Source of the DNA: a virus
Lineage: Duplodnaviria; Heunggongvirae; Uroviricota; Caudoviricetes
DNA: 26,403 nt
Reading direction: 5' to 3' (one strand)
IMG/VR virus record: IMGVR_UViG_2690316269_000009
Span: 1 to 26,403 of that record
Below, one piece after another: positions 185 through 16,285 of this stretch. The notes beneath the pieces were generated by a model. The model saw nothing but the letters and a program-made list of their open reading frames with translations, was not told where the DNA came from and searched no databases. Positions within the stretch are counted from its first letter, which is position 1; each line of letters opens with the position of its first letter. Made by a program: the position numbers and the translations under genes.

Positions 185-213
185 AAAAAAAAAGCCGCGC
201 CATGCGCAGCCGA
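185..213 (-). terminator. Rho-independent terminator (minus strand)
   Basis: GC-rich hairpin (rc of gccgcgccatgcgcagcc, about 7 bp stem, 3 nt loop) followed on minus strand by a run of 9 T (plus-strand A-run 185-193). Confidence 0.45.
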
Positions 214-412
214 AAATAAAGGGATAACGATGATAGTTTGAGAAAAACAGAAATAACACTTTTGTGGCAAAGCATGGTGCCGGGTGCCTCCCGGTGAATT
301 CAGTATCAGCACCTGAATCCGCGATTACCCCATATTCCTTCTTGCTGATTGCCCCACCGCACAGGGGGATTCACCATGCAGAAGTGTTTTTAATAAACAG
401 CAAACAAAAAAA

Positions 413-580
413 TCAAGCATTATGCAGGCTGTTTCTTTTTATCACCGGCCACAGCAATACCATAATGCCGCAGACCAGCACCCCATCCGCCAGCACCGAC
501 ATGATTCTGCTGGTGAAATCCACCATCACCACCAGAAACAGCAGGAGTGCAGCCACAGCCAGGCGCAGTTTTACCGTCAC
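413..580 (-). CDS. Small hydrophobic membrane protein (about 55 aa, GTG start) translationally coupled to the upstream TerB-like ORF
   Basis: Minus-strand frame reads VTVKLRLAVAALLLFLVVMVDFTSRIMSVLADGVLVCGIMVLLWPVIKRNSLHNA; GTG overlaps the TGA of the upstream frame (cTGTGA); GGAGA about 8 nt upstream. Confidence 0.4.
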   Translation of the reverse strand: MTVKLRLAVAALLLFLVVMVDFTSRIMSVLADGVLVCGIMVLLWPVIKRNSLHNA

Positions 581-969
581 AGGTGATTCTCCAGACGAAG
601 ACCCAGAACACCGGCAATCTCTTCCAGCACCTTGCGCTCTTCCGGCTCAATTTCGCCGTCTGCCTCCGCAATGGCCACCGCCACATCCAGCACATCTTCC
701 GCTTCACGCGTATCGTGTTTCACATCCTCGATCTCACGTAACGCCGCACGACGACCAGTTTTAAAGTTCGTATCCAGCTGACCGATAATGGTTGCGCTAA
801 TCGCATTAATTTCTGACGTAAACGCGGACAGCGCAGGCTGATTACGCAGTACCTGTTCGATCTTCGCTTTCTAGGAAGCCTCACATTCACCATCTGCACA
901 GGCCACCAGGTAGGCAGCATTAATAACCGCCTGTGCCAGATCGCGTTTCTCAAACTTTCCTTTTTCCGG
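577..969 (-). pseudogene. TerB-like (tellurite-resistance TerB / DjlA N-terminal fold) ORF interrupted by in-frame TAA (970-972) and TAG (871-873); no ATG in the intact segment
   Basis: Minus-strand frame translates ...PEKGKFEKRDLAQAVINAAYLVACADGECEAS*KAKIEQVLRNQPALSAFTSEINAISATIIGQLDTNFKTGRRAALREIEDVKHDTREAEDVLDVAVAIAEADGEIEPEERKVLEEIAGVLGLRLENHL*; the repeated A-x-ADGE-x-E motif is typical of the TerB fold. Confidence 0.45.
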
Positions 970-1063
970 TTAACGTGACACACCAATAACTCTTGTCGAA
1001 AAAGCCAGCAAGCTGAAAGACCGGTATTCACAACCACCAGCGCGTTTACTGTACTGGCGTGAT

Positions 1064-1090
1064 TTCAGTCATAAAAAAACCCGCCTGGCG
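1064..1090 (-). terminator. Rho-independent terminator downstream of Q (candidate tR'-like site)
   Basis: Minus strand reads cacccgtcgccaggcgggttttttt: about 6 bp stem (one G-U), 4 nt loop, T7 tail; roughly 90-110 bp past the Q stop. Confidence 0.4.
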
Positions 1091-1176
1091 ACGGGTGTAA
1101 AAAATCTTCTAACGTCAGGCATAAAACGCCCATCGTTAGGGCAAATTTACCACAGATTCGGGAAAAATCAACAAAG

Positions 1177-1998
1177 CTATCTGGTCACCTTTTTCAGTTG
1201 TTGTTCTGCCCATGCTTCTTCAATATCAAACTGCACCACCAGCGTATCGTAAAAACGTTTAACTGTTTTTTTCCATGTATCAAGAGATATGGCATCGGTT
1301 ACATTACATATGGCATTAAATGCCTCCGTTGAAGGTAATCTTTCATAGCCACGACCACCACAACGCTGGCAGTCTCTGATAACAGGCATACCACGTTTTA
1401 CCGACTCTTCACGATGAATGGCAACACCGCGCCCACGACAATCTTTACAGGCAGTGGATACCTCTCCCTTCCCTCCACACTCCGGACAGGCAACTTTTAC
1501 CACCTCCCTGACTTTTTTCCATTCCTCCCAGTAAGACGGATACACGCCTTTTGTGCACTTTGCCCACACTGGCGGCTTACCATCCGGATACTGGATCTTG
1601 TTTGTAAAAACCTCGCTTTCAATAAATTTTTTTCCGTGACAACAGGGGCACTGTTTTTTGCTCGCCGCGCTACGGGCATAATCTTCAAACGCATACGAAG
1701 CCATAATACGCATCACTGCCGGTTTTATTTCTGCCGGGAGTTTTCTTAACGCCGCCACGCGATCACACCGACTGAGTGCATATTCTGTCAGCAATTCTGT
1801 TGCCCGCTCTCTGTCATTCATACTAATGCCCATTTTCCCAAGGAACGCAGAAAACCCCATCTCAGCCCAATTCTGTGTCATGCCCTGCGCGGCCATCACA
1901 TCAGTGATACTCAGCGTATCTTTCGACGTTGAGGCCGATGCATCAGTCAGGCCGGGGGATTTTGGGGAGTAGTATTTCGGTAAATCTTCCAGTTTCAT
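1177..1998 (-). CDS. Phage late-gene antitermination protein Q (Phage_antitermQ-like, 273 aa)
   Basis: ORF with Cys-rich zinc-binding motifs (CPCCHGKK, CPECGGKG, CKDCRGRG, CQRCGGRG); sits directly downstream of rusA with ATGA stop/start overlap, as in lambdoid nin-Q regions. Confidence 0.75.
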   Translation of the reverse strand: MKLEDLPKYYSPKSPGLTDASASTSKDTLSITDVMAAQGMTQNWAEMGFSAFLGKMGISMNDRERATELLTEYALSRCDRVAALRKLPAEIKPAVMRIMASYAFEDYARSAASKKQCPCCHGKKFIESEVFTNKIQYPDGKPPVWAKCTKGVYPSYWEEWKKVREVVKVACPECGGKGEVSTACKDCRGRGVAIHREESVKRGMPVIRDCQRCGGRGYERLPSTEAFNAICNVTDAISLDTWKKTVKRFYDTLVVQFDIEEAWAEQQLKKVTR

Positions 1999-2369
1999 TT
2001 TTTGACCTGCCCTTCAAGCATTATGGGGTAAATTTTCACCCCCAGACGTCCACCAGATACTGGCTGAGCACGAACGATATTGATTTCATCAAACTGCTCA
2101 TCGTCCATTAGCAACCCCGCATGCGTCAGCGCATCCAGCGGCGCTTTCAGAATATTGTCCAGGTCACGGCGACGCTTATCCGGTGGCTCGGCAATAATCT
2201 TTATCGCCAGCCTTCCGGACAGGCTTAATTTCAGCCGCTGCTGGCGAACAATAAGCGCCACAGCCCGGCGATAACGCTCACCGGCTTTTGATACAAAATA
2301 TGTGCTGCCACGACGTCGCCAGTAGGTGTTCACCGTCGGCGGGTAAAGCAAAACAAACTCTATACGCAT
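1995..2369 (-). CDS. rusA: Crossover junction endodeoxyribonuclease RusA (Holliday junction resolvase)
   Basis: 124 aa; motif PPDKRRRDLDNILKAPLDALTHAGLLMDDEQ matches the recalled RusA core (RRRDLDN...DAL...DD). Confidence 0.8.
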   Translation of the reverse strand: MRIEFVLLYPPTVNTYWRRRGSTYFVSKAGERYRRAVALIVRQQRLKLSLSGRLAIKIIAEPPDKRRRDLDNILKAPLDALTHAGLLMDDEQFDEINIVRAQPVSGGRLGVKIYPIMLEGQVKK

Positions 2370-2381
2370 CAGTAACCTCTT

Positions 2382-3431
2382 TTACCCGAGCACGCCGGTT
2401 GCAAAGGCGTGATCAAGAAAACGAAAAATTAAATCAACCTGGGAACCATGCTTTTCTTCGAACGCCAGCGGATCCGCATGAAGCTCGTTGTGATGCTCCC
2501 GACACAGCGGTAGCGTGAAAATATCGTGGGATTTTGTTCCCATTCCGCCCTGACCATGACCAATCAGATGATGAGGATCGTCCGCTGGCTTACCACAACA
2601 CGCACACGGCTGTGTCTTTACCCAGCGTGTGTATTTCTCATTTACCCAGCGGCGACGTTTAGGTCGTTTCATGAAGGATTCCGGAGACTCCGGATCAACG
2701 GCAATGCTGACCACCGTCTTTTCCTGTGGTGGGTTCTGTTGCTGGTGGGTGTGAGGCGGTAGCGCAATATTTTTTGTGCGCTGCTTCAGTATGCTGGTGG
2801 CGGTCTGCTCTCCCGGCACGATGTCGCTTTCACGGTACATTGAGCGGATTTTTTCCGCACGCCCCCCCAGCGAACGACGTAATACCGCTTCCGGTAGCGC
2901 GTCCGCCACCTGATTGCGGACCGCCCACCAGGATAATTCAGCCAAAGATAATTCACGCTCCTGCGTACCGCTTATTGCGTGACCGATGACGTCAATCATC
3001 CATGCTGACAGGTTTTGATGAGCAAGTTGCTCGAGTGATTCGGATGTCTGGTCACGCAGCTGGTTGTCGCAGTGCCAGCACAACACCATTGCGCCGGTAC
3101 CATAACGGTGAATGACAGTTTCGCTGTGATGATAATCGCCGTGTGGCCACTGGCAGGATTTAATATGGCGCAACAGCCAGTCAGACAATGCACCAGCACC
3201 ACCAGCAGCACGAATCACCCGTGCGTTACTGAAAAACGGCAGCAATGTTTTGTCTTCCACCAGCGGCTGGCGAACGGCAGGAACGACCCCGGACGGCAGA
3301 TTACGCATGCTTTTCGGTTCCGGCTCCATCAATACCCGGGTATTGTGGAATACTGGCATGGATTCACGGCCCGGCTTAACGATCACCAGCCCGAGTTCCG
3401 GTACCAGAACAGGTCGAAGTAATACCCGCAC
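2382..3431 (-). CDS. ydfU: DUF968 family prophage protein (YdfU-like), start codon uncertain (GTG at 3431 or internal ATG)
   Basis: 349-codon ORF; C-terminal Cys/His cluster (CACCGKPADDPHHLIGHGQGG...CREHHNELH); position between rem/hok and rusA matches Qin-type order. Confidence 0.65.
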   Translation of the reverse strand: MRVLLRPVLVPELGLVIVKPGRESMPVFHNTRVLMEPEPKSMRNLPSGVVPAVRQPLVEDKTLLPFFSNARVIRAAGGAGALSDWLLRHIKSCQWPHGDYHHSETVIHRYGTGAMVLCWHCDNQLRDQTSESLEQLAHQNLSAWMIDVIGHAISGTQERELSLAELSWWAVRNQVADALPEAVLRRSLGGRAEKIRSMYRESDIVPGEQTATSILKQRTKNIALPPHTHQQQNPPQEKTVVSIAVDPESPESFMKRPKRRRWVNEKYTRWVKTQPCACCGKPADDPHHLIGHGQGGMGTKSHDIFTLPLCREHHNELHADPLAFEEKHGSQVDLIFRFLDHAFATGVLG

Positions 3432-3432
3432 G

Positions 3433-3711
3433 TTACCTCCAGATGCGTTGCTGGAATGTGCGAGACGGACGCGGTGGGCGTTCAGAGTAAGGAAGCCTGA
3501 CGGAGATTATCCAGTGACGGTAGTCGAGACTAAGGGCTTTCTTAACCTCGTATCCGCGCCTGCGGTAACACTGAATTGTCCATTCAGCCTGCTCTTCAGT
3601 ACATGGAGGGTGTTGGAACCATTCAGACTTGAATGCGTGAGAATACCGCTCGTGCGTGCAGGCAAGAACGGGCGAATTATCAGAATTGTAATATTTTACG
3701 TTGCGTGCCAT
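3433..3711 (-). CDS. Hypothetical small prophage protein (92 aa)
   Basis: ORF MARNVKYYNSDNSPVLACTHERYSHAFKSEWFQHPPCTEEQAEWTIQCYRRRGY...; stop abuts the start of the DUF968 gene. Family not recognised. Confidence 0.45.
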   Translation of the reverse strand: MARNVKYYNSDNSPVLACTHERYSHAFKSEWFQHPPCTEEQAEWTIQCYRRRGYEVKKALSLDYRHWIISVRLPYSERPPRPSRTFQQRIWR

Positions 3712-3777
3712 CGGTTTTCTCCGGTGGCACGGTGTTACTCAGCGGGAGTTCAGCCCCGCGCAAGATTGTAGATGAGT

Positions 3778-4029
3778 TTATTCTTCTGCAAAAGCTGAAA
3801 AGCCTGCTTTTATTCCGATCTCTTTCAGTGCCTGTAATGAAGTGACAAACTCACCTTCGCGCAAGATAAATCCGTCTGTCACTCGACCATCCACAAAATT
3901 AATTAACGCAGCCCCATTCTTTCGCAAACACATAATGCGGTAATGACTAACAAGATTTCCATTTTCAACGCACACAGCATAGAGGCCATCTTCACAAAAA
4001 ATTTTACGCAGTTCTTCGATGTTCATCAT
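3778..4029 (-). CDS. rem: Rem-like small prophage protein (83 aa)
   Basis: ORF MMNIEELRKIFCEDGLYAVCVENGNLVSHYRIMCLRKNGAALINFVDGRVTDGFILREGEFVTSLQALKEIGIKAGFSAFAEE; lies between hok and ydfU-like as in Qin. Confidence 0.55.
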   Translation of the reverse strand: MMNIEELRKIFCEDGLYAVCVENGNLVSHYRIMCLRKNGAALINFVDGRVTDGFILREGEFVTSLQALKEIGIKAGFSAFAEE

Positions 4030-4145
4030 CAGAATCCTTCCGGATAATTAGCTCTCCCCTTTAAGGGACCATCCCTCTTATCCCTGCGCGCTACTTAAGT
4101 ATTTTTGATTCTATTCCGGCGCCGTCCAGAACTTCAAACGCGTTG

Positions 4146-4177
4146 AAAATAAAAACAAAAACCCGCCGAAGCGGGTT
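4146..4177 (-). terminator. Rho-independent terminator (minus strand), likely 3' end of the hok transcript
   Basis: Minus strand reads acccgcttcggcgggtttttgtttttatttt: GC stem with tetraloop then T-rich tail, about 70 bp downstream of hok stop. Confidence 0.55.
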
Positions 4178-4245
4178 AAGTGCGGGTGCGTTGAGGATGC
4201 CTGCCACATCAGAGGTGGCGAGGGATTTCTCCCTCGCCGGGTCTC

Positions 4246-4401
4246 TTACTCCTCAGGTTCGTAAGCTGTGAAGACAGCGACCTCCGTCTGGCCGGTTCGG
4301 ATTCGTACCTCGCAGAGGTCTTTCCTCGTTACCAGTGTCGTCACTATGACGGTTAAACAGATGACGATCAGGGCGATTAACATCGCCTTTTGCTGCTTCA
4401 T
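4246..4401 (-). CDS. hokD: Hok-family type I toxin (HokD/RelF-like, 51 aa)
   Basis: MKQQKAMLIALIVICLTVIVTTLVTRKDLCEVRIRTGQTEVAVFTAYEPEE: single TM helix plus conserved C-terminus; an in-frame upstream extension to 4458 (MLDTCRLASYVPEGKEKQA) may be the mok-like leader. Confidence 0.8.
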   Translation of the reverse strand: MKQQKAMLIALIVICLTVIVTTLVTRKDLCEVRIRTGQTEVAVFTAYEPEE

Positions 4402-4714
4402 AGCCTGCTTCTCCTTGCCTTCCGGCACGTAAGAGGCTAACCTACATGTGTCTAGCATGAAATTGGCCTCAGATTAATGTTAAGCGTCTTGCAGGACGCG
4501 TAATGTTAACTGGGGCTTTTCTCTATCTGCCTTTGGTGTTCATGCCTGAGACAGATAGCCTCAAGCACCCGCAGCCATTCTACTTAACTCCCGTTACCCC
4601 GCCAATATGAAATCAGTCAGAAAGGCGATCCATAAGAATAATGAATTCTGTAAGGCAATAGTCTCACTGTCTAACATATCTTACCTGATTACTTTACAAT
4701 ATAATAATTCATAG

Positions 4715-5350
4715 TTAAATCAAATGAATGTCATCATCCAATAATTCATTAGTAGTAATACTACCTTTTTTGAAAAAATTTTCATTTGCCTCAGCAATTT
4801 TTGCATCATTAACAAATTCATCACACATCCCAAAATAATGAAAAAATCTATTTAGTTTACATATTCCAATGGTATAGTGCCCTTTAGGTGTTTTGTCCAC
4901 ATAAACACGATTTGCTTTTATAATATGCATCTCATAATCATCTATATGTGGATGAACGATGCGAAATGATGCAGATGCAGTTGGATAGTTTTTGCGCCGC
5001 CCCCCATTTATTACGGGTTCAAATAACACTTCATTTTTACCTTTGAATTCATTGCAGTCAGGACATACTACACATAGATTCTTAGGTTCAAAAATAAAAC
5101 ATAGATATTGAGATTTTGGCACAATATGCTCTATAGGAGCAGCTTGTGCAGCTCTTACCCCAATAGGCTCATGACAATATACACATTCTAGCTTTTGTTC
5201 TTCTCTGTAATGATTTCTAATTTCTGCACGGAGAACTTGCAAATCATCATCTCCCCAGTTGGTATGCTTAAAATCTGGAGAAGACAATTTTTTCTCAATA
5301 ATATCTAATGACTCTGCGCTGAATCTAATTGGATTTTTAATTTTTGGCAT
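4715..5350 (-). CDS. ptuB: HNH endonuclease, Septu PtuB-like (about 211 aa from ATG at 5350; alternative GTG at 5359)
   Basis: HNH signature CVYCHEP...IEHIVPKSQ...NLCVVCPDCNEFKG; start overlaps the 3' end of the upstream ATPase gene (operon coupling). Confidence 0.7.
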   Translation of the reverse strand: MPKIKNPIRFSAESLDIIEKKLSSPDFKHTNWGDDDLQVLRAEIRNHYREEQKLECVYCHEPIGVRAAQAAPIEHIVPKSQYLCFIFEPKNLCVVCPDCNEFKGKNEVLFEPVINGGRRKNYPTASASFRIVHPHIDDYEMHIIKANRVYVDKTPKGHYTIGICKLNRFFHYFGMCDEFVNDAKIAEANENFFKKGSITTNELLDDDIHLI

Positions 5351-6710
5351 AAATTTCACACACCTGAGATACGGAATTTACGAGTTCATTAATAGGGTCA
5401 TTACTATTAACGTTTTCAAGGAGAAGCTGGAGTTGTTTTAATTCACGCCAATTATCATCTGTTACTAACTTAGCAGTCTTAACTTTTGAAAGTAAATTGA
5501 AAGCTAATCTGGCAATGTATTCATTCATAATGCCAGGGGCATCAAATAGTTCCGCAAGTTGATAGTCTGCAGACCGGTTGCTAAAGTATTTTGCTTTATA
5601 AAGATAACTTTTCGACAAAGATGTTATATAACAACCTTTATTCGGCAAATTGGATATTATTTGTGGTGAATGAGTTGCAATTATGAATTGACAACCTGAG
5701 TAAGTTAAAAATGCTTTTGTTAACATAATGATAAACTCTTCCTGCCATCGAGGATGCAAGCTTATTTCCGGTTCATCAATTAGTATTATAGAACCATCAG
5801 TTATATGCCCTGCAATTCCAAGCAACATCACTAATAAACATTGTTCTCCCGAGCTCGCACGTTTAAGTGACATGGGACCATAGCTTTTTTTTATGAGTCG
5901 CATATCCATCAATCTCATGAAGCCAGCGTTCATAAGTTTAAGAATTGATCTAGAAAAATAATTATTCGCATAAGTCGAGCCAACCAATGTTTCACCATTG
6001 GTAAAATCGACTGACAAGGTTACAGCCCTACGTTCAGGTTCAAATCGATTAATTTCAACCAGTGCTTCGTAAATATCATGACGTGATTCGGAGTTTAACT
6101 TTAAGAGACTCTCAATATTCTTCCTGTCAATTTTTATATTGTATTTTAAATATAACTCCTTAACTTCCGTTAATATCTCATCTGAATATACACCAATGAA
6201 GTTATAGTCAGGAGTGTCCGGTCCGTTGTAAGTTGGTTTAAATACAAACTCTATATGGGGCTCAAAATCAATAGAATGAAAAACATCGAGTAAATTTGCA
6301 GGATTTTCTGAATAAGCAAGTTTCTCTAGCCAACCTCTCGCTGCTGAAGATAAAAGGGATACGGCATTTGATACGCCGAAGGGGCCTTCTCCACGCATAC
6401 CCACATAGCGATAATTATTTTCTTTCCTTTGGTGATTTAATGACCTACGCCCTGGAGGGAATTTATCGAATGGGCTGGTAGATACGGCAATTAACTTTGG
6501 TGTTATTTCTCTGTCAAATAATGGATTAAAAGTTTTCAAGAAATGAATATCTTGAATACAGTCTTTAGCAATCTGAGATAACAATCTGCTTTTTCCAACG
6601 CCATTTTTACCTACAATTACTGTAAAAATATTCGCATTATCAGAAACATCACCTTCTATAGCAAGTTTTAAGGTTCGACTATCATGATGGGTATAATATA
6701 GTCTTTTCAT
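5337..6710 (-). CDS. ptuA: AAA15/ABC-type ATPase, Septu PtuA-like (457 aa)
   Basis: Walker A VIVGKNGVGKS near N-terminus, long insertion, ABC signature-like LKRASSGEQ, Walker B ILIDEPEISLH, H-loop IIATHSPQI; ATG at 6708-6710. Confidence 0.7.
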   Translation of the reverse strand: MKRLYYTHHDSRTLKLAIEGDVSDNANIFTVIVGKNGVGKSRLLSQIAKDCIQDIHFLKTFNPLFDREITPKLIAVSTSPFDKFPPGRRSLNHQRKENNYRYVGMRGEGPFGVSNAVSLLSSAARGWLEKLAYSENPANLLDVFHSIDFEPHIEFVFKPTYNGPDTPDYNFIGVYSDEILTEVKELYLKYNIKIDRKNIESLLKLNSESRHDIYEALVEINRFEPERRAVTLSVDFTNGETLVGSTYANNYFSRSILKLMNAGFMRLMDMRLIKKSYGPMSLKRASSGEQCLLVMLLGIAGHITDGSIILIDEPEISLHPRWQEEFIIMLTKAFLTYSGCQFIIATHSPQIISNLPNKGCYITSLSKSYLYKAKYFSNRSADYQLAELFDAPGIMNEYIARLAFNLLSKVKTAKLVTDDNWRELKQLQLLLENVNSNDPINELVNSVSQVCEIYAKN

Positions 6711-7094
6711 TTTATTTTTCTCTCATTAAAATGCTCTTAATTAAGAATACCTATGCCTTTAACAGGCTCATAGTTATGATTTGTGATGCTTTCAAAAGGG
6801 TATGTAACTAAGTATTGAACTCTACACCTAAGATTCTAAGATTTTTAAATTAAAGTAGTTAAACATGCTTTTGATTGTACTCATTCTATGTCCATCGTTG
6901 CTGCATGTCTAGATATCGTGCCCCGCTATTGTTATGTAATGATATGATGGACGCCCTGTCTGAAGCAGCCAGTGAAATATTTTTACTGTCTGCGTTTTCT
7001 ACAGGAGTAAATCACATGAGCACAATCAGAGTTGTTGGTATTGATATTGACCTGTGCCCAATTTTTTGAGACATATATTGGTACGCTCTTGGCA

Positions 7095-7116
7095 CAGGGC
7101 TGCTGCTGCAGCCCTG
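7095..7116. repeat. Perfect 9-bp inverted repeat / hairpin (cagggctgc tgct gcagccctg) just past the recombinase remnant stop
   Basis: Read directly; no adjacent T-run, so not a classical intrinsic terminator; possible recombination site or transcript 3' structure. Confidence 0.4.
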
Positions 7117-7122
7117 ACAGCT

Positions 7123-7691
7123 TTAGACTTCGATCGATTCAGAGATCTCTAATGCATCATCAACTTCTATACCCAGATAACGAACTGTGCTTTCCGTTTT
7201 CTTATGGCCCAACGGAAGTTGGATCACCCGGAGATTCTTAGTTTTCTTGCAGACAAGGCAAGGTTTTGTTCTTCTCATGGAATGTGTGCTGTAAAGCGAA
7301 TCTTCGAGACCAAGCTTTTCTCCCCCCTATGAAAGATTCGGTTATATTGCAGGATTGATATGTGTTGGTTAGTACCGACCCGAGATCGGAACAAGTAGTC
7401 TTTACTGCGTAAATTGCCAAGCTTTATCAATGCAGAAACAGCTTCTCTTGTCCCTTTGGTTATCTCAAATTGGATAGGACTGCCAGTTTTTCAGTTGCAA
7501 CACCGTAGCTCTGCTTGAAACCGAGCTAAATCACGCGTTTTACCTTCCAGTTCAAGCCGGATTTGGAGCCCCCAGATATGAGATATCTGAAGTGGTCTTT
7601 TTGGGCCTATGATACTGTCTTTGTTCCTCGGTGACGTATTCATACTCAAATCTCCTGCAATGTGGAAGATTTGAGTATGGTTGTCTCTCAA
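7123..7691 (-). pseudogene. Degenerate tyrosine recombinase (phage-integrase family) remnant, split across at least three frames
   Basis: C-terminal frame reads ...KNLRVIQLPLGHKKTESTVRYLGIEVDDALEISESIEV* (LGH....T.RY catalytic-Tyr box); upstream frames give LFRSRVGTNQHISILQYNRIFHRG and ALQHTFHEKN with frameshifts and stops between. Confidence 0.45.
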
Positions 7692-7748
7692 GAGCGAAAT
7701 AGGTCAACTATAACTAGTTGTTGTGCATGTACGAATTCTGCCAATTAA

Positions 7749-8591
7749 TTATTGACAATAAAAAATTCTGGAATGTTCGAAATCATCATATCGAATTATA
7801 ATCTGGTTGACTGCATCTATTGTTGGCGCCATTTCAGTTATAATATCTCGATAACCTAAAGAGTTAAATACATTTACTAAGGCCTCACACCGTAGGCCAA
7901 TAGCAATTACGACATTATAAATTGCCAGCCGTTTATTTTCTTGTTTAACTGCAAGAGTGAGTTCGATAGCAGTAGTTTTATCGCTTTGGATTGCATTATA
8001 TAGAGATACTATATTTGCCATATCATCAGAGAATGTATGTATTGAATCACAAAGAGGGACGTAATAGGCATGATAGTGTGTTTCCCAGCCAATTACTTCG
8101 AAAAGCTTTTTGGTTCCAGGATATTCAGGTGTATTTGGCCACAATCTATTAAACATATCAGTTAGCTCTTTTCCGATACGAATCCTTTCATCTGCTGCTG
8201 GATTAGTCATTTCTTTGGATTTTAAACACTCCAGCCACCGTTTCCCATTACTATGAACTAATTTCTTACTACCCTTGAGTAATGCTTGTGCATTTTTTCC
8301 ATCATCAATTGCTATATAAAATTGATTGGCAGCCTGTTCCATTATAACTCTAGTTAATACTTCCGATGCTGAAAAGGCTCCGGTACTCAAAGAAAATATA
8401 GCCTGATTACTAAGTTCATTCAGTACATTAAAGTAATGTAAAACCATCAATTTTTGTTCCACCCCCTTTAGGTTATCTATTTTATTTTTATGCCTCTCAA
8501 ATTTCGCATGGATATATTTATTTATCGCGGCTATTTTTTTTACATCTTCGTCGAAATCAAACGGGCAACGTCCAAACGATTTTTTCCTCAT
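7749..8591 (-). CDS. Hypothetical protein (280 aa), unrecognised; candidate single-gene abortive-infection/defence factor
   Basis: Clean ORF with ATG at 8589-8591 and strong AGGAGG Shine-Dalgarno 6-8 nt upstream; AT-rich; same orientation as the ATPase/HNH pair. Confidence 0.6.
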   Translation of the reverse strand: MRKKSFGRCPFDFDEDVKKIAAINKYIHAKFERHKNKIDNLKGVEQKLMVLHYFNVLNELSNQAIFSLSTGAFSASEVLTRVIMEQAANQFYIAIDDGKNAQALLKGSKKLVHSNGKRWLECLKSKEMTNPAADERIRIGKELTDMFNRLWPNTPEYPGTKKLFEVIGWETHYHAYYVPLCDSIHTFSDDMANIVSLYNAIQSDKTTAIELTLAVKQENKRLAIYNVVIAIGLRCEALVNVFNSLGYRDIITEMAPTIDAVNQIIIRYDDFEHSRIFYCQ

Positions 8592-9030
8592 ATATTCCTC
8601 CTGTTTTACAATCTCCCATAAGTTGGAAAATTATACACTGGAGATTACCTATAAATAACTGCGCACGATAGCTAGTCAGTGCAAGAAGTACAACCAAGTG
8701 AACGGTGCGTATCAGATACCTAGCTTAAAGTTCGCGATAGCCGTACTCTGTGTATTAGCTCAGACATTACCTGACAGGTTGAGTAGATAGAATCGAATCA
8801 AAGCTGACAGTCTGGTTTGGACTGTGGGGTCAACCGATGGATGCAACACACAGCGATCTACAGACATTACTAACATAGCGGTGTATTAATCATCGGGGAG
8901 CAGATCAGACTAACATTAAGCATTAGTAGTAATTTGCAGAGCATCCGTTTCTTACACAAAGCAAACCCCCACGCTAGCCCAACCCTGTGCCACACAATGT
9001 CAATTCACATCTGAACTAATGCTCTTTAAT

Positions 9031-9305
9031 CTAGTAACGTCTAAAATATCGAACATTTCCCTGATAAAATGCCAGTATGCGCTGCATAACTTCACTCATT
9101 GTGGTGGTTTCTTCCGGCAGTTCTGCCTGCGCTGGCTGTTCCTGCTGAACGTTGTTATCAGCCACACGCCAGGTGTACGCGCTTTTATCAACAAAACCAG
9201 CCTTTTTCAGTTCCCATAGTTCGTTCAGCACTTCTTCACGCGCGCAGCAAGTTCTATGGATGTGGCTTTTCCCATTGCTTTCAGTGCGTCAAAAACAGTC
9301 TCCAT
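9031..9305 (-). pseudogene. Small prophage gene with -1 frameshift ([24 protein letters not shown] | [28 protein letters not shown]...)
   Basis: ATG at 9303-9305 with strong GGGAGG RBS; frame hits TGA after 26 codons while the protein-like reading continues in the -1 frame (track ORF 9031..9231). Shift maps to gtgaagaagtg. Confidence 0.45.
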
Positions 9306-9337
9306 AAATTTCCTCCCGGTAAAAATTACTTCTCAAC

Positions 9338-10003
9338 TCAGACAAGCCCAGCCGCTTTCCGGCGTTCATATTCCTGTTTCAGCAACTCAATTGGCGTTGG
9401 CCCCGACGGGCGTTTGGGTGCCGCCAGTTGTCGCCGGACTGGCGGAACACTCAGGCCGTTACTAACATGCTTTGCCCATTTCGTCAGCTGCCGTTCTGCA
9501 AGCCGTTTTAACTCCCCTTCGGTCATCTGCCGCTCAATCCCCTTTGAACGCATCTCGAGGCAAATGTGATACAGCACAGGCTGAGACCACGGGTATTTAT
9601 CGCTCCCGTCGTATCGCCAGGACTCGTTGCGCCAGCGACGGTACTCCTCCATCACGGCATCCACCGTCAGACCGAATGGATTGGCTCCGCTTTCAGAAAT
9701 CAGCGCCACAAACTCAGCCAGGTCCGGAGGCCATGTTTCACCCGCCCGGCAGCGGTCCATGCACTGGCGGCAGACCTGTCGGATTTTCTGCTCAGTCATC
9801 GCACCAATCTGTGCAATCCAGAGCTTCGAAGGTGCGGCCCCGTTCTTCTGGGTCCAGCGGTTCGAATAAACCTCCCCCATGAGTTCCCACAGCTTCCAGG
9901 CCGTTTCCGTCGCTGATAAATCCGTTTTCACGTTCCCACTGCTCACGTGCTGCCCGAATTTCCTGAACTGCCCGTGATGCGGTGTCACCTGGTGCTGCTG
10001 CAT
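9338..10003 (-). CDS. Replication protein P-like (helicase-loader family); true start uncertain because of overlap with upstream gene
   Basis: C-terminal two-thirds (FVALISESGANPFGLTVDAVMEEYRRWR...YPWSQPVLYHICLEMRSKG...ELKRLAERQLTKWAKHV) parallels lambda P as recalled; located 3' of the O-like gene. Confidence 0.6.
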   Translation of the reverse strand: MQQHQVTPHHGQFRKFGQHVSSGNVKTDLSATETAWKLWELMGEVYSNRWTQKNGAAPSKLWIAQIGAMTEQKIRQVCRQCMDRCRAGETWPPDLAEFVALISESGANPFGLTVDAVMEEYRRWRNESWRYDGSDKYPWSQPVLYHICLEMRSKGIERQMTEGELKRLAERQLTKWAKHVSNGLSVPPVRRQLAAPKRPSGPTPIELLKQEYERRKAAGLV

Positions 10004-10832
10004 GGTTTACCCCCTTGCTGACTGGTTTAACCTGCGCCCTGACGTGATTTACGTGACGGGCGAATTTCTGCTCCCACTGAATCTGCGTAAACACTTTCCC
10101 CTCAGCAGCCCAGTAGTCCCGGAAGGCGGCAAGTTCAGCAGGTGTGAATTCTGTCTCCGGCAAAGCCATCCCCCACAACGCAGCCCGTCGTCGAAAATCC
10201 CGTGACGGATACCAGCTATCGGTCATCGGAAATTTTTCGATGGGTTCGCTCAGGCCATCCAGGAATACAGGAGGTGCAGCCTGTAACGACAAAACTTTCT
10301 GCTCACTGGTCGGAGCACTCTCGCGTGCGTTATGTGTGGGGTTTAGCTCTTTGGGTTCCTTTGGGTTCCGTGATCCGTTTTTGGGTGTCTTTGATGGAAA
10401 ATTTGGGTGTCTTTGGTTATTTTCCATGCAGCTAAGAGTTCCGTTTTTGGGTCTGTTTTGTGCTGAAACATAACCATTTTCGGTACTGTTTTTATTAACA
10501 GCACCGATTTTACCCACCTTTAAAGACTCCCGTTTTTGGGTGTATTCAGGCTCGGCAACACTTTCTTCTACACCGATAAGTCGGTACACCACAATTTGCT
10601 TTGTTCTGCCTTTTCTCTCACCGGTATCAACAATTAACCCAATCTCCATCAGGTGTCGTAAGCTGTCCTGCACAGTCTTTTTGTTCAGTTCCGTTACTTC
10701 TGCCAGTGCAGATACAGACGGGTATGCACACAAATCGGCACCGCACATATCAGCAAGCCAGGTCAATACAGACTTACTGGATGAACTGCCGGTTTTCACC
10801 TTTTTAGCCCATCGTAGTGCATCGATACTCAT
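9792..10832 (-). CDS. Phage replication initiation protein (N-terminal winged-helix, DnaT-like C-terminal region); start placed at MSIDALRWAKK
   Basis: N-terminus MSIDALRWAKKVKTGSSSSKSVLTWLADMCGADLCAYPSVSALAEVTELNKKTVQDSLRHLMEIGLIV is HTH-like; C-terminal FTPAELAAFRDYWAAEGKVFTQIQWEQKFARHVNHV resembles DnaT-like domains; AGGGG RBS before ATG 10830-10832. Confidence 0.6.
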   Translation of the reverse strand: MSIDALRWAKKVKTGSSSSKSVLTWLADMCGADLCAYPSVSALAEVTELNKKTVQDSLRHLMEIGLIVDTGERKGRTKQIVVYRLIGVEESVAEPEYTQKRESLKVGKIGAVNKNSTENGYVSAQNRPKNGTLSCMENNQRHPNFPSKTPKNGSRNPKEPKELNPTHNARESAPTSEQKVLSLQAAPPVFLDGLSEPIEKFPMTDSWYPSRDFRRRAALWGMALPETEFTPAELAAFRDYWAAEGKVFTQIQWEQKFARHVNHVRAQVKPVSKGVNHAAAPGDTASRAVQEIRAAREQWERENGFISDGNGLEAVGTHGGGLFEPLDPEERGRTFEALDCTDWCDD

Positions 10833-11355
10833 ACGAACCCCTGGCAGACATTTGTTTATCTGCAAAGTAATATTGATATTGCTGACGATACGCATGCTTG
10901 AAAGCAATAGCTTTTTCTATAAGCTCGTCAGTCTCACGTTCCACAACAGATGGATCCGCAAAAAGCAGCCCGGACTCCACCACATCGCCATATTCTTTGT
11001 TTAATCCGGCGATCATGTACGTAATGCTTTTTCCATCACTGATCTCACGATACAGCCTGAAATCACTAATTCGGATAGCCTCCATAATTGCCGGAATCAG
11101 CGCCGTGAATTTTTTCCGCTTATCCCTGGTGTCGATAGCTTTCCAGCGTTCGAATATCTTCACCCGGTTAACGCACAGCGCCCGTTGATCAACCTCGCCA
11201 TCATTAAACGTGACGCGTTGAACATCGATGTTCGGGCGTTCTTTCAGAGCCCAGAATGCTTCCGTGATTAATATCGTCGCCTGCTCCTGTGTCATTCCTG
11301 GTCGGCATACCCAGGCATCCAGAGCCTCACAAACCTGTTCAGGGGTGATTTTCAT
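10804..11355 (-). CDS. Hypothetical early-region protein (183 aa), cII-position, possibly YdaT-like
   Basis: Clean ORF between the cro-like gene and the replication gene; family assignment is a guess from position. Confidence 0.45.
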   Translation of the reverse strand: MKITPEQVCEALDAWVCRPGMTQEQATILITEAFWALKERPNIDVQRVTFNDGEVDQRALCVNRVKIFERWKAIDTRDKRKKFTALIPAIMEAIRISDFRLYREISDGKSITYMIAGLNKEYGDVVESGLLFADPSVVERETDELIEKAIAFKHAYRQQYQYYFADKQMSARGSYEYRCTTMG

Positions 11356-11566
11356 TGTTCAACCGCCCCGCCCGCTTTGCCTTACGATATTCGTCATAAA
11401 CTTTGGGGTCGTACTGAAGTTCCCCGCCGGATGCCTCTTGCAGGCGCATCGCGCGACCTTCAGGAACCAGTTCCCCCCATTGAGAAACAGCAGATGGATC
11501 AACACCAGCAGCTTTCGCTACTTTGGCTTTCGTCCCATAAAAATTAATTACGTCTGATTTAAACAT
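11339..11566 (-). CDS. dicC: Cro-like regulator, DicC-like (75 aa from MFKSDVINFYG...)
   Basis: Small HTH protein (TKAKVAKAAGVDPSAVSQWG) transcribed divergently from the repressor gene; C-terminus ...EGRAMRLQEASGGELQYDPKVYDEYRK matches recalled DicC. Confidence 0.65.
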   Translation of the reverse strand: MFKSDVINFYGTKAKVAKAAGVDPSAVSQWGELVPEGRAMRLQEASGGELQYDPKVYDEYRKAKRAGRLNNENHP

Positions 11567-11643
11567 TACCCCTCCAAAGTTGAGTTTTCTCAATAGTAAT
11601 CACTCAAGGAATCTCAAGTCAAGGGTTATTAAGATATCTAAAT
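11567..11643. promoter_or_regulatory. Divergent promoter/operator region of the immunity switch
   Basis: 77-bp gap between divergent genes containing palindrome ttgagttttctcaa (11580-11593) and repeated ctcaag half-sites (cactcaaggaatctcaagtcaagg). Confidence 0.45.
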
Positions 11644-12051
11644 ATGAACGAGAAAACTTTAGGTCAACGAATTAGAGAAAGACGCAAACAGGTTGGTTTA
11701 AGTCAAAACGATTTAAGCAAAGCTGCTGGCGTATCTGGCTCATCAATTTCACTATGGGAAAGCGACCATACAGCCCCGCGCGGGCAAAATTTGCATCGCC
11801 TGGCTGAGGTATTGCAATGTTCACCAACTTGGATACTGTTTGGTGACGAGGATAAAACACCAGATCCACCAGTTGCACTCAACAGCGCCTTAGACTTATC
11901 GGAAGATGAGTTGGAGATGTTGCGATTGTATCGCGCACTTCCAAAATCAGAGCAGCAAGCACAAATCAGCGAACTCCGTGCCCGCGTTGAGAATTTTAAT
12001 CGCCTATTCACCGAGCTACTAGAAGCTCGCAAACGTAACAAACATCAATAA
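11644..12051 (+). CDS. dicA: XRE-family HTH repressor, DicA-like (135 aa)
   Basis: N-terminal HTH (LGQRIRERRKQVGLSQNDLSKAAGVSGSSISLWE) and segment LQCSPTWILFGDEDK match the recalled DicA pattern; ATG at 11644. Confidence 0.75.
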   Translation: MNEKTLGQRIRERRKQVGLSQNDLSKAAGVSGSSISLWESDHTAPRGQNLHRLAEVLQCSPTWILFGDEDKTPDPPVALNSALDLSEDELEMLRLYRALPKSEQQAQISELRARVENFNRLFTELLEARKRNKHQ

Positions 12052-12242
12052 CCCCCCTTCACAAATTTTAAAGCCTTACATTTCAATGTATTGGCTTTAT
12101 TTTGCATTAAATATTGAGTTTTATCATCAAAAGCACTTGACCAATATTCATGAGAAAACTAAATTACGATCCATCAAGACACCGCACGGTGTTCTCAGCA
12201 AACAGTTCCGCTACCCCGGCGTTAAGGGGAAATGAGGTCAAC

Positions 12243-12398
12243 ATGGATACTATCGATCTTGGCAACAGCGAATCTCTGGTATGTGGCGTGTTCCCCAACC
12301 AGGACGGTACGTTCACCGCGATGACGTATACCAAAAGCAAAACGTTTAAAACCGAATCTGGAGCGCGTCGCTGGCTGGAAAGAAATTCAGGTGGGTGA
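12243..12398 (+). CDS. ydfA: Small prophage protein, YdfA-like (51 aa, DUF1391-type)
   Basis: MDTIDLGNSESLVCGVFPNQDGTFTAMTYTKSKTFKTESGARRWLERNSGG within the 12150-12398 ORF; position right after dicA-like. Confidence 0.55.
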   Translation: MDTIDLGNSESLVCGVFPNQDGTFTAMTYTKSKTFKTESGARRWLERNSGG

Positions 12399-12399
12399 T

Positions 12400-12528
12400 A
12401 TGGATTTCGACACAATCATGGAAAAGGCTTACGAAGAATACTTCGAAGGTCTTGCCGAAGGCGAAGAAGCTCTCAGCTTCAGCGAATTTAAACAGGCACT
12501 TTCCAGTTCGGCAAAATCTAACGGCTGA
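12400..12528 (+). CDS. ydfB: Small prophage protein, YdfB-like (42 aa)
   Basis: ATG at 12400; MDFDTIMEKAYEEYFEGLAEGEEALSFSEFKQALSSSAKSNG; below the 60-aa cutoff of the ORF track, read directly. Confidence 0.55.
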   Translation: MDFDTIMEKAYEEYFEGLAEGEEALSFSEFKQALSSSAKSNG

Positions 12529-12557
12529 TAAGCGAAACAGCACCGCGAGGAATCAGT

Positions 12558-12776
12558 ATGCAGAAACGAGAACCCGTCATCATCGCGCCAGACTATACCG
12601 ATGATGAACTTTATGAGTGGATGCGCCAGAAAATTAATGCAGCGCAGGATCTGAAATGGGCCAATGAAGCCAGGGCTAAGCAGGCTGAAAATCTGTCCGC
12701 TCTGGAGCAGGATATCACTAATCTGGAAAAAGCAGCGACATTAAGCATTGCCAGAATGATTACATACCCGCGTTAA
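12558..12776 (+). CDS. ydfC: Small prophage protein, YdfC-like (72 aa)
   Basis: Clean ORF MQKREPVIIAPDYTDDELYEWMRQKINAAQDLKWANEARAKQAENLSALEQDITNLEKAATLSIARMITYPR in dic-operon position. Confidence 0.55.
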   Translation: MQKREPVIIAPDYTDDELYEWMRQKINAAQDLKWANEARAKQAENLSALEQDITNLEKAATLSIARMITYPR

Positions 12777-13117
12777 TAGCTAACCAACGAAGCTAAGGTT
12801 GGTAATTAAGGAGTTCTCCACGGATGAGGTGGAGTGCGTGCGCCGGACACGGGTGAGCATCCGGCACTGACAGTTTACTGAAAGGATATTTCCCTGAAAA
12901 GTCAGACCATAACGCGAAAGCGCACGGCGAGGTAGCTGGTTCATAGATAGCCTGTCGTTAAATTTTCGTCGACCGTGCGCTTCCGGTTGTGGCAATCCGC
13001 GAAATGGCGCGGCGGTAAGTATGGCGGGGTTATTCCTTCCCCCGTTGAGGACACCGGGTTGTCAGGTTGACCATACGCTTAAGTGACAACCCCGCTGCAA
13101 CGCCCTCTGTTATCAAT

Positions 13118-13175
13118 TTTCTGGTGACGTTTGGCGGTATCAGTTTTACTCCGTGACTGCTCTGCCGCCCTTTTT
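13118..13175 (+). ncRNA. dicF: DicF small regulatory RNA (ftsZ-targeting sRNA of dic-type prophages)
   Basis: tttctggtgacgtttggcggtatcagttttactccgtgactgctctgccgccc + ttttt matches the DicF sequence as recalled, including terminal GGCGG/CCGCC hairpin and U-tail; sits upstream of dicB. Confidence 0.7.
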
Positions 13176-13344
13176 AAAGTGAATTTTGTGATGTGGTGAA
13201 TGCGGCTGAGCGCACGCGGAACAGTTAAAACCAAAAACAGTGTTATGGGTGGATTCTCTGTATCCGGCGTTAATTGTTAACTGGTTAACGTCACCTGGAG
13301 GCACCAGGCACTGCATCACAAAATTCATTGTTGAGGACGCGATA

Positions 13345-13533
13345 ATGAAAACGTTATTACCAAACGTTAATACGTCTGAAGGTTGTTTTGAAATTGGTGT
13401 CACTATCAGTAACCCAGTATTTACTGAAGATGCCATTAACAAAAGAAAACAAGAACGGGAGCTATTAAATAAAATATGCATTGTTTCAATGCTGGCTCGT
13501 TTACGTCTGATGCCAAAAGGATGTGCACAATGA
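13345..13533 (+). CDS. dicB: Cell-division inhibitor DicB (62 aa)
   Basis: MKTLLPNVNTSEGCFEIGVTISNPVFTEDAINKRKQERELLNKICIVSMLARLRLMPKGCAQ; ATG at 13345; directly downstream of DicF. Confidence 0.8.
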   Translation: MKTLLPNVNTSEGCFEIGVTISNPVFTEDAINKRKQERELLNKICIVSMLARLRLMPKGCAQ

Positions 13534-13691
13534 ATTCAGCATTTGTGCTTGTTCTGACAGTTTTTCTTGTTTCCGGAGAGCCAGTTGATATTGCAGTCAG
13601 TGTTCACAGGACAATGCAGTAGTGTATGACTGCAGCAACCGAACAGAAAATTCCCGGTAACTGTTACCCGGTCGATAAAGTTATTCACTAG
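13530..13691 (+). pseudogene. ydfD: YdfD-like small membrane protein interrupted by in-frame TAG at 13620-13622
   Basis: ATG overlaps dicB stop (ATGA); reads MNSAFVLVLTVFLVSGEPVDIAVSVHRTMQ*CMTAATEQKIPGNCYPVDKVIH*, i.e. one amber codon inside an otherwise continuous reading. Confidence 0.45.
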
Positions 13692-13813
13692 GATAATATC
13701 GAAATCCCGGCAGGTCTTTAAAACAGTTCCGTAATAAATATCCGGTTTCATTCTTATATGCCAGCAATGGCAGGGATTTGTTCATCCTTAAATCTGTCAT
13801 GAGGTTAAAACAA

Positions 13814-16285
13814 ATGAGTAAAGTCTTTATTTGCGCCGCTATTCCTGACGAACTGGCAACAAGGGAAGAAGGCGCTGTGGCTGTAGCCACAGCCATTGAA
13901 GCTGGCGACGAACGCCGTGCTCGAGCAAAATTTCACTGGCAATTCCTGGAACATTATCCGGCTGCTCAGGACTGCGCTTATAAATTTATTGTCTGCGAGG
14001 ATAAACCTGGCATACCCCGCCCTGCCCTCGATTCATGGGATGCTGAATATATGCAGGAAAACCGCTGGGATGAGGATTCTGCTTCTTTTGTCCCGGTTGA
14101 GACTGAATCCGATCCGATGAACGTCACTTTTGACAAGCTGGCCCCTGAAGTACAGAACGCTGTCATGGTTAAGTTCGACACATGTGAAAACATCACCGTT
14201 GATATGGTGATTAGCGCACAGGAATTGTTGCAGGAAGACATGGCAACATTCGACGGACATATCGTTGAAGCGTTGATGAAAATGCCAGAAGTTAACGCCA
14301 TGTATCCGGAGCTTAAGCTGCATGCCATCGGGTGGGTTAAGCATAAATGTAAGCCTGGTGCCAAATGGCCCGAAATTCAGGCAGAGATGCGCATCTGGAA
14401 AAAACGTCGCGAAGGTGAACGCAAGGAAACCGGAAAATACACGTCTGTTGTTGATCTCGCCCGCGCCAGAGTCAATCAACAGCACACTGAAAATTCAACA
14501 GGAAAAATCAGCCTGGTCATTGCTGCCATTCATCGCGAATACAAGCAGACATGGAAAACACTGGATGACGAACTGGCCTACGCTCTCTGGCCTGGTGATG
14601 TGGATGCCGGAAACATTGACGGCAGCATCCATCGCTGGGCAAAAAATGAAGTTATCGACAACTACCGCGAAGACTGGAAGCGTATCTCGGCATCAATGCG
14701 CAAACAGCCTGATGCCCTTCGCTACGACCGCCAGACTATTTTTGGCCTTGTCCGTGAACGTCCGATCGACATTCACAAAGACCCTGTGGCACTGAACAAA
14801 TACATTACTGAATACCTGACTACAAAGGGCGTGTTTGAAGATGAAGGAACAAATCAGAGCGCAACTGATACTCTCTCGTCGCCAGTACCAGAAACTGATG
14901 CAGTGGAAACGGCAATTCCGGACAACGAAAAAACCGAATGCAAAGTGGAAGTCGAACCATCTGTAGAGCGTGAGGGGCCGTTCTACTTCCTCTTCACCGA
15001 CAAGGATGGCGAAAAATACGGTCGCGCAAACAAACTTTCTGGTCTGGATAAGGCACTGGCTGCCGGGGCTACTGAAATCACGAAAGAAGAATATTTCGCC
15101 CGCAAAAACGGTACATACTCAGGTTCACAACAAAATACTGGTGCATCTGACACGACCGCACAACCAGAGCCGGTAAAAGTTACCGCTGACGAAGTAAACA
15201 AAATTATGCAGGCAGCCAATATCAGCCAGCCTGACGCCGATAAGTTGCTTGCTGCCTCTCGCGGAGAATTTGTTGCAGGGATTAGCGACCCGAATGATCC
15301 GAAATGGGTTAAGGGGATCCAGACCCGCGATTCTGTAAACCAGAACCAGCATGAATCGGAACGGAACTACCAAAAAGCGGAACAAAACAGCCCAAATGCG
15401 TTACAAAACGAGCCAGAAACGAAACAGCCTGAACCAGTGGCGCAACAGGAAGTGGAAAAAGTCTGCACCGCCTGCGGTCAGACCGGCGGCGGCAACTGCC
15501 CTGATTGTGGCGCGGTGATGGGCGACGCAACATACCAGGAAACATTCGATGAAGAGTATCAGGTTGAAGTTCAGGAAGATGATCCGGAGAAAATGGAAGG
15601 CGCTGAACATCCACACAAGGAGAACACTGGCGGCAATCAGCATCACGATAGCGATAATGAAACTGGCGAGACGGCAGATCACTCAATTAAGGTGAACGGT
15701 CATCAAGAAATCACATCCACCAGCAGGACGTGTGACCATCTAATGATCGACCTTGAAACCATGGGAAAAAATCCTGATGCCCCGATCATCTCAATAGGTG
15801 CAATATTTTTCGATCCGCAAACCGGAGATATGGGACCGGAATTTAGTAAGACTATCGATCTGGAAACTGCTGGCGGAGTCATTGATCGGGACACCATTAA
15901 ATGGTGGCTTAAGCAATCACGCGAAGCGCAATCTGCCATTATGACCGATGAAATCCAGTTAGATGATGCACTGTTACAATTGCGGGAATTTATCGACGAA
16001 AACTCCGGTGAATTTTTTGTTCAGGTCTGGGGAAATGGAGCCAACTTCGACAACACGATTTTGCGCCGTTCATACGAACGGCAGGGGATCCCCTGCCCGT
16101 GGCGTTACTACAACGATCGCGATGTACGCACAATCGTTGAGCTGGGGAAAGCCATAGACTTCGATGCCAGAACGGCTATTCCATTCGAAGGTGAGCGCCA
16201 TAATGCACTTGATGACGCCCGTTACCAGGCAAAATACGTTTCAGTTATCTGGCAAAAACTGATCCCGAGTCAGGCTGATTTTTAA
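13814..16285 (+). CDS. Large early-operon exonuclease (about 823 aa) with C-terminal DEDDh (DnaQ-like) 3'-5' exonuclease domain
   Basis: ATG at 13814 with GAGG RBS; C-terminus has Exo I MIDLETMG, Exo II VWGNGANFD, Exo III HNALDDARYQ; acidic linker with Cys4 ribbon CTACGQTGGGNCPDCG. Confidence 0.7.
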   Translation: MSKVFICAAIPDELATREEGAVAVATAIEAGDERRARAKFHWQFLEHYPAAQDCAYKFIVCEDKPGIPRPALDSWDAEYMQENRWDEDSASFVPVETESDPMNVTFDKLAPEVQNAVMVKFDTCENITVDMVISAQELLQEDMATFDGHIVEALMKMPEVNAMYPELKLHAIGWVKHKCKPGAKWPEIQAEMRIWKKRREGERKETGKYTSVVDLARARVNQQHTENSTGKISLVIAAIHREYKQTWKTLDDELAYALWPGDVDAGNIDGSIHRWAKNEVIDNYREDWKRISASMRKQPDALRYDRQTIFGLVRERPIDIHKDPVALNKYITEYLTTKGVFEDEGTNQSATDTLSSPVPETDAVETAIPDNEKTECKVEVEPSVEREGPFYFLFTDKDGEKYGRANKLSGLDKALAAGATEITKEEYFARKNGTYSGSQQNTGASDTTAQPEPVKVTADEVNKIMQAANISQPDADKLLAASRGEFVAGISDPNDPKWVKGIQTRDSVNQNQHESERNYQKAEQNSPNALQNEPETKQPEPVAQQEVEKVCTACGQTGGGNCPDCGAVMGDATYQETFDEEYQVEVQEDDPEKMEGAEHPHKENTGGNQHHDSDNETGETADHSIKVNGHQEITSTSRTCDHLMIDLETMGKNPDAPIISIGAIFFDPQTGDMGPEFSKTIDLETAGGVIDRDTIKWWLKQSREAQSAIMTDEIQLDDALLQLREFIDENSGEFFVQVWGNGANFDNTILRRSYERQGIPCPWRYYNDRDVRTIVELGKAIDFDARTAIPFEGERHNALDDARYQAKYVSVIWQKLIPSQADF

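Follow-up and report, generated by a model that had tools for sequence, protein, structure and literature searches.

Do in-frame stop codons and a shifted frame in otherwise conserved prophage genes mean that the prophage is decaying, that the host recodes these genes, or that a few dispensable genes have been lost in the ordinary way? The question is raised by the 26,403 nucleotides of the IMG/VR virus record IMGVR_UViG_2690316269_000009 (Caudoviricetes), the whole of which is called the window here, and which carries one half of a Qin/dic-type lambdoid prophage of Escherichia coli, with the early, regulatory and integration genes, inserted at the tRNA gene serU. A preliminary description, made from the letters of the window alone, reported three nonsense codons (two in a TerB-like and one in a ydfD-like open reading frame (ORF)), a frameshift in a small gene and a shattered recombinase, and took the pattern to fit a cryptic prophage under decay. 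Our analysis leads to another answer: four dispensable genes, namely those for TerB/TciA, YdfD, a DUF1627 protein and a small recombinase, are very probably ordinary pseudogenes of different ages and causes, without recoding or suppression, and the core functions in the window are intact. For all four, intact homologues keep the sense codon or the frame (GAG at codon 46 of TerB, GAG at codon 31 and CAG at codon 54 of ydfD, the uninterrupted frames of DUF1627 and the recombinase). Further lesions accompany each of them: damaged 5' ends in TerB, a second stop in ydfD, a deletion together with a truncation in DUF1627, and three indels in the recombinase.

The comparison set for megablast was 5,426 complete E. 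coli genomes, to which the genome counts below refer and of which none agrees with the window throughout. Positions 1-14000 of the window match the prophage of strain CD45 at 100.0%, and direct comparison with that prophage extends over 1-17686 with 3 mismatches and 0 gaps (99.98% identity over 17.7 kb), the identity breaking off inside serU. All three single-nucleotide polymorphisms (SNPs) are GC to AT transitions; two are synonymous and the third is the second amber codon of ydfD described below. The features themselves are already known, being annotated as pseudogenes in public genomes: in the prophages of CD45 and AMSHJX01 the Prokaryotic Genome Annotation Pipeline (PGAP) flags TerB and ydfD as 'internal stop', the small recombinase as 'frameshifted; internal stop' and DUF1627 as 'frameshifted; missing C-terminus'.

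Two amber codons in ydfD

The gene for the lysis protein YdfD stands at the end of the dic module, with the following features.

13119-13170: DicF small RNA, upstream of dicB (Rfam)
13345-13533, plus strand: dicB, intact, overlapping the ydfD start (ATGA) (CD45 annotation)
13530-13721, plus strand: ydfD (lysis protein) pseudogene of 192 nt with two ambers (translation, alignment)
13620-13622, plus strand: first amber, GAG to TAG, ydfD codon 31 (alignment)
13689-13691, plus strand: second amber, CAG to TAG, ydfD codon 54 (alignment, CD45 comparison)

The frame translates as MNSAFVLVLTVFLVSGEPVDIAVSVHRTMQ, a stop, CMTAATEQKIPGNCYPVDKVIH, a second stop and DNIEIPAGL. Compared with K-12-type records the window copy is identical at 190 of 192 bases (99.0%), and only GAG31 to TAG and CAG54 to TAG differ. 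Thus the reported TAG at 13620-13622 is a true nonsense codon, read as GAG in K-12 and other genomes, and the one at 13689-13691 had been overlooked. There are 30 places with the codon-31 amber (E31), spread over 26 complete genomes; E2348/69 and AMSHJX01 are among these, and CD45 has two copies. One CD45 copy lies in the prophage at 4.25-4.31 Mb (L001/L175) and the other at 2.06 Mb (L172); one of these prophages carries nleB2, nleC, nleH and nleF as cargo and ends in a partial serU by e14-like pin and tail-fibre genes, and the second stands at the true serU site. The E31 amber deletes YdfD residues 31-63, and Lu et al. reported that lysis suffers already from small C-terminal deletions and depends on the intact protein (PMC8835842). 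In this toxic lysis gene, the lineage-specific G to T change at codon 31 takes away the whole C-terminal domain needed for lysis.

Regarding the second amber, CD45 reads CACCAGGAT at this place, and it is the internal C of the Dcm site CCAGG (13688-13692) that has turned into T. Deamination of 5-methylcytosine at Dcm sites is presented as a classic amber hotspot, dominant among the lacI ambers, in the account of Coulondre et al. (1978) given by a review (PMC12606429), and from the sequence context the same process probably made the codon-54 amber. In the order of events that we infer it came later than codon 31, and it would have been neutral because the gene was already null. The two ambers occur together in none of the complete genomes. 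The codon-54 amber (Q54) is present alone (CCAGG to CTAGG), on a haplotype with GAG31 and V6A, in an IMG/VR contig (L174, IMGVR_UViG_2648501730_000007, 2267-2307), and such recurrence on another haplotype is what is expected of a mutation hotspot. Import of the second amber from an L174-like donor was considered and is not favoured, for the private SNP at 13443 is absent in L174; a short conversion tract would be possible.

Could ydfD instead be inactivated again and again by selection against a toxic lysis protein, the ambers being parallel adaptive losses? YdfD expression does lyse cells (PMC8835842), two nonsense alleles exist in separate backgrounds (E31 in the 26 genomes, Q54 alone in L174), and the window allele is otherwise the K-12 allele. 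Even so this explanation is unlikely: about 3,900 of the 5,426 genomes have ydfD-like sequence, against which 26 with the E31 amber make the loss rare and not favoured, the second amber of the window hit a null allele and hence cannot have been selected, and the Dcm hotspot accounts for the recurrence without selection.

The TerB/TciA remnant and its two stops

Among the cargo genes of the late operon, TerB/TciA comes first. The intact allele matches Pfam TerB (E=2.9e-16), and translation of the TerB frame of the window shows both reported stops, at 871-873 and 970-972, which turn out to be of different nature.

577-958, minus strand: TerB/TciA-family pseudogene remnant, codons 19-143 and the stop (alignment to intact 143-amino-acid (aa) alleles; PGAP internal stop)
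871-873, minus strand: amber, GAG to TAG, TerB codon 46 (Glu) (alignment with the intact 143-aa allele of strain MLI109 and three other copies)
956-1176, minus strand: leader downstream of Q (late-promoter/tR' region), replacing the TerB 5' end and holding the TAA at 970-972 (BLAST, EC958)

The TAG at 871-873, which had been noticed before, is in frame and replaces the GAG of Glu46 in the intact 143-aa alleles; the best 80 IMG/VR relatives of the intact TerB protein are all intact 143-aa alleles, with Glu46 encoded by GAG. The TAA at 970-972 is also in frame but lies upstream of the TerB homology, which begins in the window at about 958, i.e. at codon 19, the start and the first 18 codons being gone. 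With BLAST the 462-nt query falls into two parts, bases 1-382 (TerB) and 380-462, of which the latter is met by itself, unannotated, in many genomes; this 83-nt piece (956-1038) is intergenic in EC958, between Q and the next gene, and a terminator-like hairpin with a T-run follows Q at 1096-1079. Because the segment is Q-leader DNA, intergenic elsewhere and outside the TerB homology, the TAA was ancestrally non-coding, and the preliminary description cannot be followed in counting it as nonsense in a conserved frame. Judged from these alignments, it would mark a recombination joint, not a mutation: a different Q-leader module may have recombined onto the TerB gene, by which the start and the first 18 codons were lost.

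How widespread the amber allele is was determined with a 45-mer centred on codon 46, since megablast seeds only if the allele matches. The TAG version is found at 962 places in 577 genomes and the GAG version at 164 places in 159 genomes, a ratio which is perhaps inflated, as many TAG genomes belong to the heavily sampled lineages O157:H7, O145 and O111. In 50,697 phage records the amber has 0 copies, which is uninformative as to whether it is confined to non-inducible prophages, because TerB itself occurs in no more than four of the records, from three distinct phages. In IMG/VR the amber 45-mer returned 80 loci. Full flanks are available for 72 amber loci. In 71 of these the 5' end is damaged, either by the replacement seen in the window or by a frameshift near the start (tRNA-linked module), and one retains ATG...MFGIF. 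AMSHJX01 (L002, 3577-4060) and about 30 IMG/VR loci with the tRNA-linked (ileZ-argN-argO) Q module have the TerB amber plus a frameshift a few codons past the ATG; in AMSHJX01 this frameshift goes unreported by PGAP, which gives 'internal stop' only.

Segregating variants tell the amber lineage, represented by 74 alleles in these counts, from the intact one.

Codons 19-143, intact alleles: 77 synonymous, 11 nonsynonymous
Codons 19-143, amber alleles: 11 synonymous, 11 nonsynonymous (Fisher p=3e-4 vs intact)
Downstream of the stop, intact alleles: 59 synonymous, 9 nonsynonymous
Downstream of the stop, amber alleles: 5 synonymous, 8 nonsynonymous (Fisher p=5e-4 vs intact)

Purifying selection acts strongly on the intact TerB family, unlike the amber lineage; because selection is relaxed in comparison with the intact alleles, the amber allele is a real pseudogene. 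It would go back to an old G to T change at codon 46 that spread among E. coli prophages by recombination, most likely through hitch-hiking with Q and the late-region modules. Its excess over the intact allele, about 6:1 in the same 45-nt context, might also be ascribed to retention in prophages of E. coli that produce Shiga toxin (STEC) and enteropathogenic E. coli (EPEC) for some remaining function, such as that of a truncated N-terminal peptide, of the untranslated RNA heading the late operon or of low-level readthrough, which we regard as hardly probable.

The DUF1627 remnant, the small recombinase and the defence island

The other two pseudogenes, of which the recombinase belongs to an inserted island, are listed here with their neighbours.

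9100-9305, minus strand: DUF1627 N-terminal remnant, about 73 of 248 codons (alignment to the intact 248-aa gene of Z1323HEC0355)
8947-9099, minus strand: DUF977 3' fragment, the last 14 codons and downstream DNA, fused to the DUF1627 remnant (alignment)
7123-7643, minus strand: broken small tyrosine recombinase of the island (alignment to the intact 200-aa site-specific integrase of STLEFF_47)
7749-8591, minus strand: DUF5677 gene, intact, 280 aa, with a strong ribosome-binding site, beside the dead recombinase (Pfam E=3.3e-9)
5337-6710, minus strand: PtuA of a Septu pair, intact, 457 aa (PADLOC E=1.9e-165)
4715-5350, minus strand: PtuB of the pair, intact, 211 aa, HNH (PADLOC E=1.1e-83)

For 9031-9305 a -1 frameshift in a small gene with a strong ribosome-binding site had been proposed. 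The shifted frame is real; its cause is a 13-bp deletion in a truncated DUF1627 remnant that is fused to the end of a DUF977 gene. The deletion follows codon 22 (joint 9241/9240), and the homology ends after ...EETTT, at about codon 73. Programmed frameshifting is not supported, as intact DUF1627 genes lack the 13-bp deletion and the ORF is cut after about codon 73. The recombinase, relative to its intact 200-aa homologue, has three indels, an 82-bp deletion near 7529/7528, a +1 insertion and a -1 deletion, and 'shattered' describes it well.

The region 6700-9340 is common to only 19 genomes at an identity of at least 99%. Elsewhere there are partial matches: 9100-9339 to DUF1627 genes, e.g. 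that by ydaV in the Rac prophage, 8947-9099 to DUF977 genes, and 7074-7700 to a small site-specific integrase. The DUF1627 and recombinase lesions are identical in AMSHJX01 (100% identity). From the alignments both sets of lesions appear to be scars of island acquisition, in which the 3' end of DUF1627 would have been replaced by the defence island (PtuAB, DUF5677 and the small recombinase) together with a DUF977 module, the 13-bp deletion being added besides, and the island's own recombinase would have decayed through the 82-bp deletion and the two single-base indels.

The adjoining and overlapping ORFs of PtuA (ATPase) and PtuB (HNH nuclease) are predicted from their sequences to be a Septu system. 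The pair occupies a hot spot between the replication genes and hok/rem, and with its flanking island occurs in only 19 of the 5,426 complete genomes. The DUF5677 and YdaT proteins gave no PADLOC match, and the DUF5677 gene may be an uncharacterised defence or cargo gene.

That some of the lesions described so far are errors of sequencing or assembly is very improbable. The ambers at 13620 and 13689 are indeed never seen together in a complete genome, as such errors would have it; the TerB, ydfD E31, DUF1627 and recombinase lesions are repeated identically in many independent assemblies, and 13689 is a plausible hotspot transition that is present in another assembly.

Readthrough and recoding

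In the preliminary description a host amber suppressor had been offered as an alternative, and recoding was doubted as the sole explanation. The lesions are indeed genuine loss of function: the TerB amber lineage is under relaxed selection and has second lesions, with no purifying selection past the amber (5:8, against 59:9 in intact alleles), and the tRNAs of the window are wild type.

17625-17714, minus strand: tRNA-Ser (serU), attachment site, wild-type anticodon CGA (tRNA scan and CD45 comparison)

The tRNA scan of the window found no suppressor tRNA, the only genes being this tRNA-Ser (CGA, hence not supD) and a tRNA-Asn (asnT, GTT). That TerB and YdfD are still made by amber readthrough, through a host suppressor or in a programmed way, is extremely unlikely. 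In its favour, all three true nonsense codons are TAG, a supE-type (Gln-inserting) suppressor would restore the wild-type Q54 of ydfD, and the TerB frame of the window has neither a frameshift nor another stop after the amber. Against it, the TerB of the window has neither start codon nor N-terminus, its amber lineage is under relaxed selection, the ambers occur in 577 (TerB) and 26 (ydfD) genomes of many hosts and lineages which cannot all have suppressors, the window serU is wild type with no suppressor tRNA encoded beside it, and TAG is the plain outcome of first-position G to T in GAG and C to T in CAG.

Core genes and organization of the prophage

The lesions are restricted to accessory and cargo genes. 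Full-length ORFs with the expected domains are found in the window for Q, RusA, P, the O/DnaT-like gene, Cro, the DicA-type repressor, the exonuclease and the integrase (int), so that no essential gene is broken within the window, the late region lying outside it. Intact, as formerly described, are the dic module, hok/sok, the Septu pair of the defence island and int. Further features are the following.

1177-1998, minus strand: Q-type antitermination protein, intact (Pfam Antiterm E=4.7e-50)
413-580, minus strand: DUF3927 small gene (TciB-like position), intact, overlapping the TerB stop by 4 nt (Pfam E=2.2e-16)
16547-17572, plus strand: integrase, full-length 341-aa ORF ending ...PENIPRKYSK (homologue comparison)

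The integrase (16547-17597 in the window) is flagged 'frameshifted' by PGAP in CD45 and ECO2947. A broken integrase was rejected, for homologues from E. albertii, Siccibacter and Salmonella, with identities as low as 61%, keep the ...YSK end, and the flag is probably an annotation artefact. The 3' end of the gene contains a 13-bp tandem repeat, GAAAATATTCCAA twice, at 17542-17567.

In CD45 the same prophage goes on with genes for lysis, terminase, portal, capsid and tail, apparently a complete set, and with nle effector cargo. With the core genes of the window intact and an apparently complete lysis, head and tail set in the CD45 copy, a cryptic prophage under decay is not demonstrated. All but one of the lesions are inherited across the lineage (TerB amber in 577 genomes, ydfD E31 in 26, the island in 19), and they are not decay in this genome.

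The annotated order in CD45 starts with the nanS-p esterase, DUF3927 and TerB, followed by Q, RusA, DUF968, rem and hokD. It goes on with HNH, the AAA ATPase, the recombinase, DUF5677 and DUF1627, then P, the DnaT-like gene, YdaT and Cro, and ends with the DicA-type repressor, a ydfA-like gene, ydfB, ydfC, dicB, ydfD, the exonuclease, DUF4224 and int. The immunity module is recognized from the CD45 annotation and Rfam as Qin/dic-type, a type defined by a DicA/DicC-type repressor pair, ydfA-C, DicF, dicB and ydfD in this order. Beyond serU come mtfA, tRNA-Asn and yeeJ. Rfam RNAs in the window are sok, DicF (76.7 bits) and an STnc100-family small RNA (100.8 bits; 236-408, minus strand), the last of which lies directly downstream of the DUF3927 gene in the late-operon leader/cargo region.

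Discussion

Several points weigh against reading the four genes as ordinary pseudogenes. The 97 codons past the TerB amber contain 0 further stops and 1 indel in 74 copies; this stop-free tail could reflect either youth or constraint, the variant counts being small. In ydfD, where 16 of the 567 possible substitutions make a stop, the chance of a second nonsense codon in a dead gene of 192 nt among 3 SNPs per 17.7 kb is a priori roughly 1e-3 by our own estimate. The coincidence is notable, and it is lessened by the Dcm hotspot and by the post-hoc choice of the site in the preliminary description. What is more, the private amber at 13689 of the window is known from a single sequence, and the tRNA scan covers the window only, so that a host suppressor tRNA elsewhere would be possible.

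As for what the four pseudogenes mean, the dominant TerB/TciA allele of STEC and EPEC prophages is a dead gene, not to be listed among the determinants of tellurite resistance. The additional amber of ydfD has the look of a textbook Dcm-hotspot mutation in a natural isolate. Pseudogenes of cargo genes alone do not make a prophage cryptic. The chief value of these results is in careful annotation, with little significance beyond.

Among known systems, the TciA/TciB cargo pair downstream of Q, e.g. in Escherichia phage JLK-2012, resembles the window in that the late operon opens with TerB/TciA and a small DUF3927/TciB-like gene, at 95.5% DNA identity; in the phage, annotation treats the gene as normally coding, whereas in the window it has the codon-46 amber and its 5' end is missing. 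In E. coli K-12, the Qin prophage has suffered heavy deletion and its ydfD is intact. It shares with the window an identical order of the immunity/dic module, DicF RNA and an intact dicB, and its ydfD differs at 2 of 192 bases, both of them amber changes. Unlike the situation in Qin, the neighbouring exonuclease and int of the window are full length and the broken gene is ydfD. The effector-carrying lambdoid prophages of EPEC and STEC, such as those of CD45 and E2348/69, carry the same pseudogenes, the E2348/69 prophage being 98.3% identical over 86% of the first 14 kb of the window; the window copy differs from them in its place at serU beside mtfA/yeeJ and in the one extra ydfD amber. That amber agrees with the Dcm amber hotspots of lacI (Coulondre, Miller, Farabaugh and Gilbert 1978) in being CAG to TAG through C to T at the second C of CCAGG, and differs from them in being a natural polymorphism in a prophage pseudogene, at a site whose methylation is presumed, instead of a member of a selected mutant collection.

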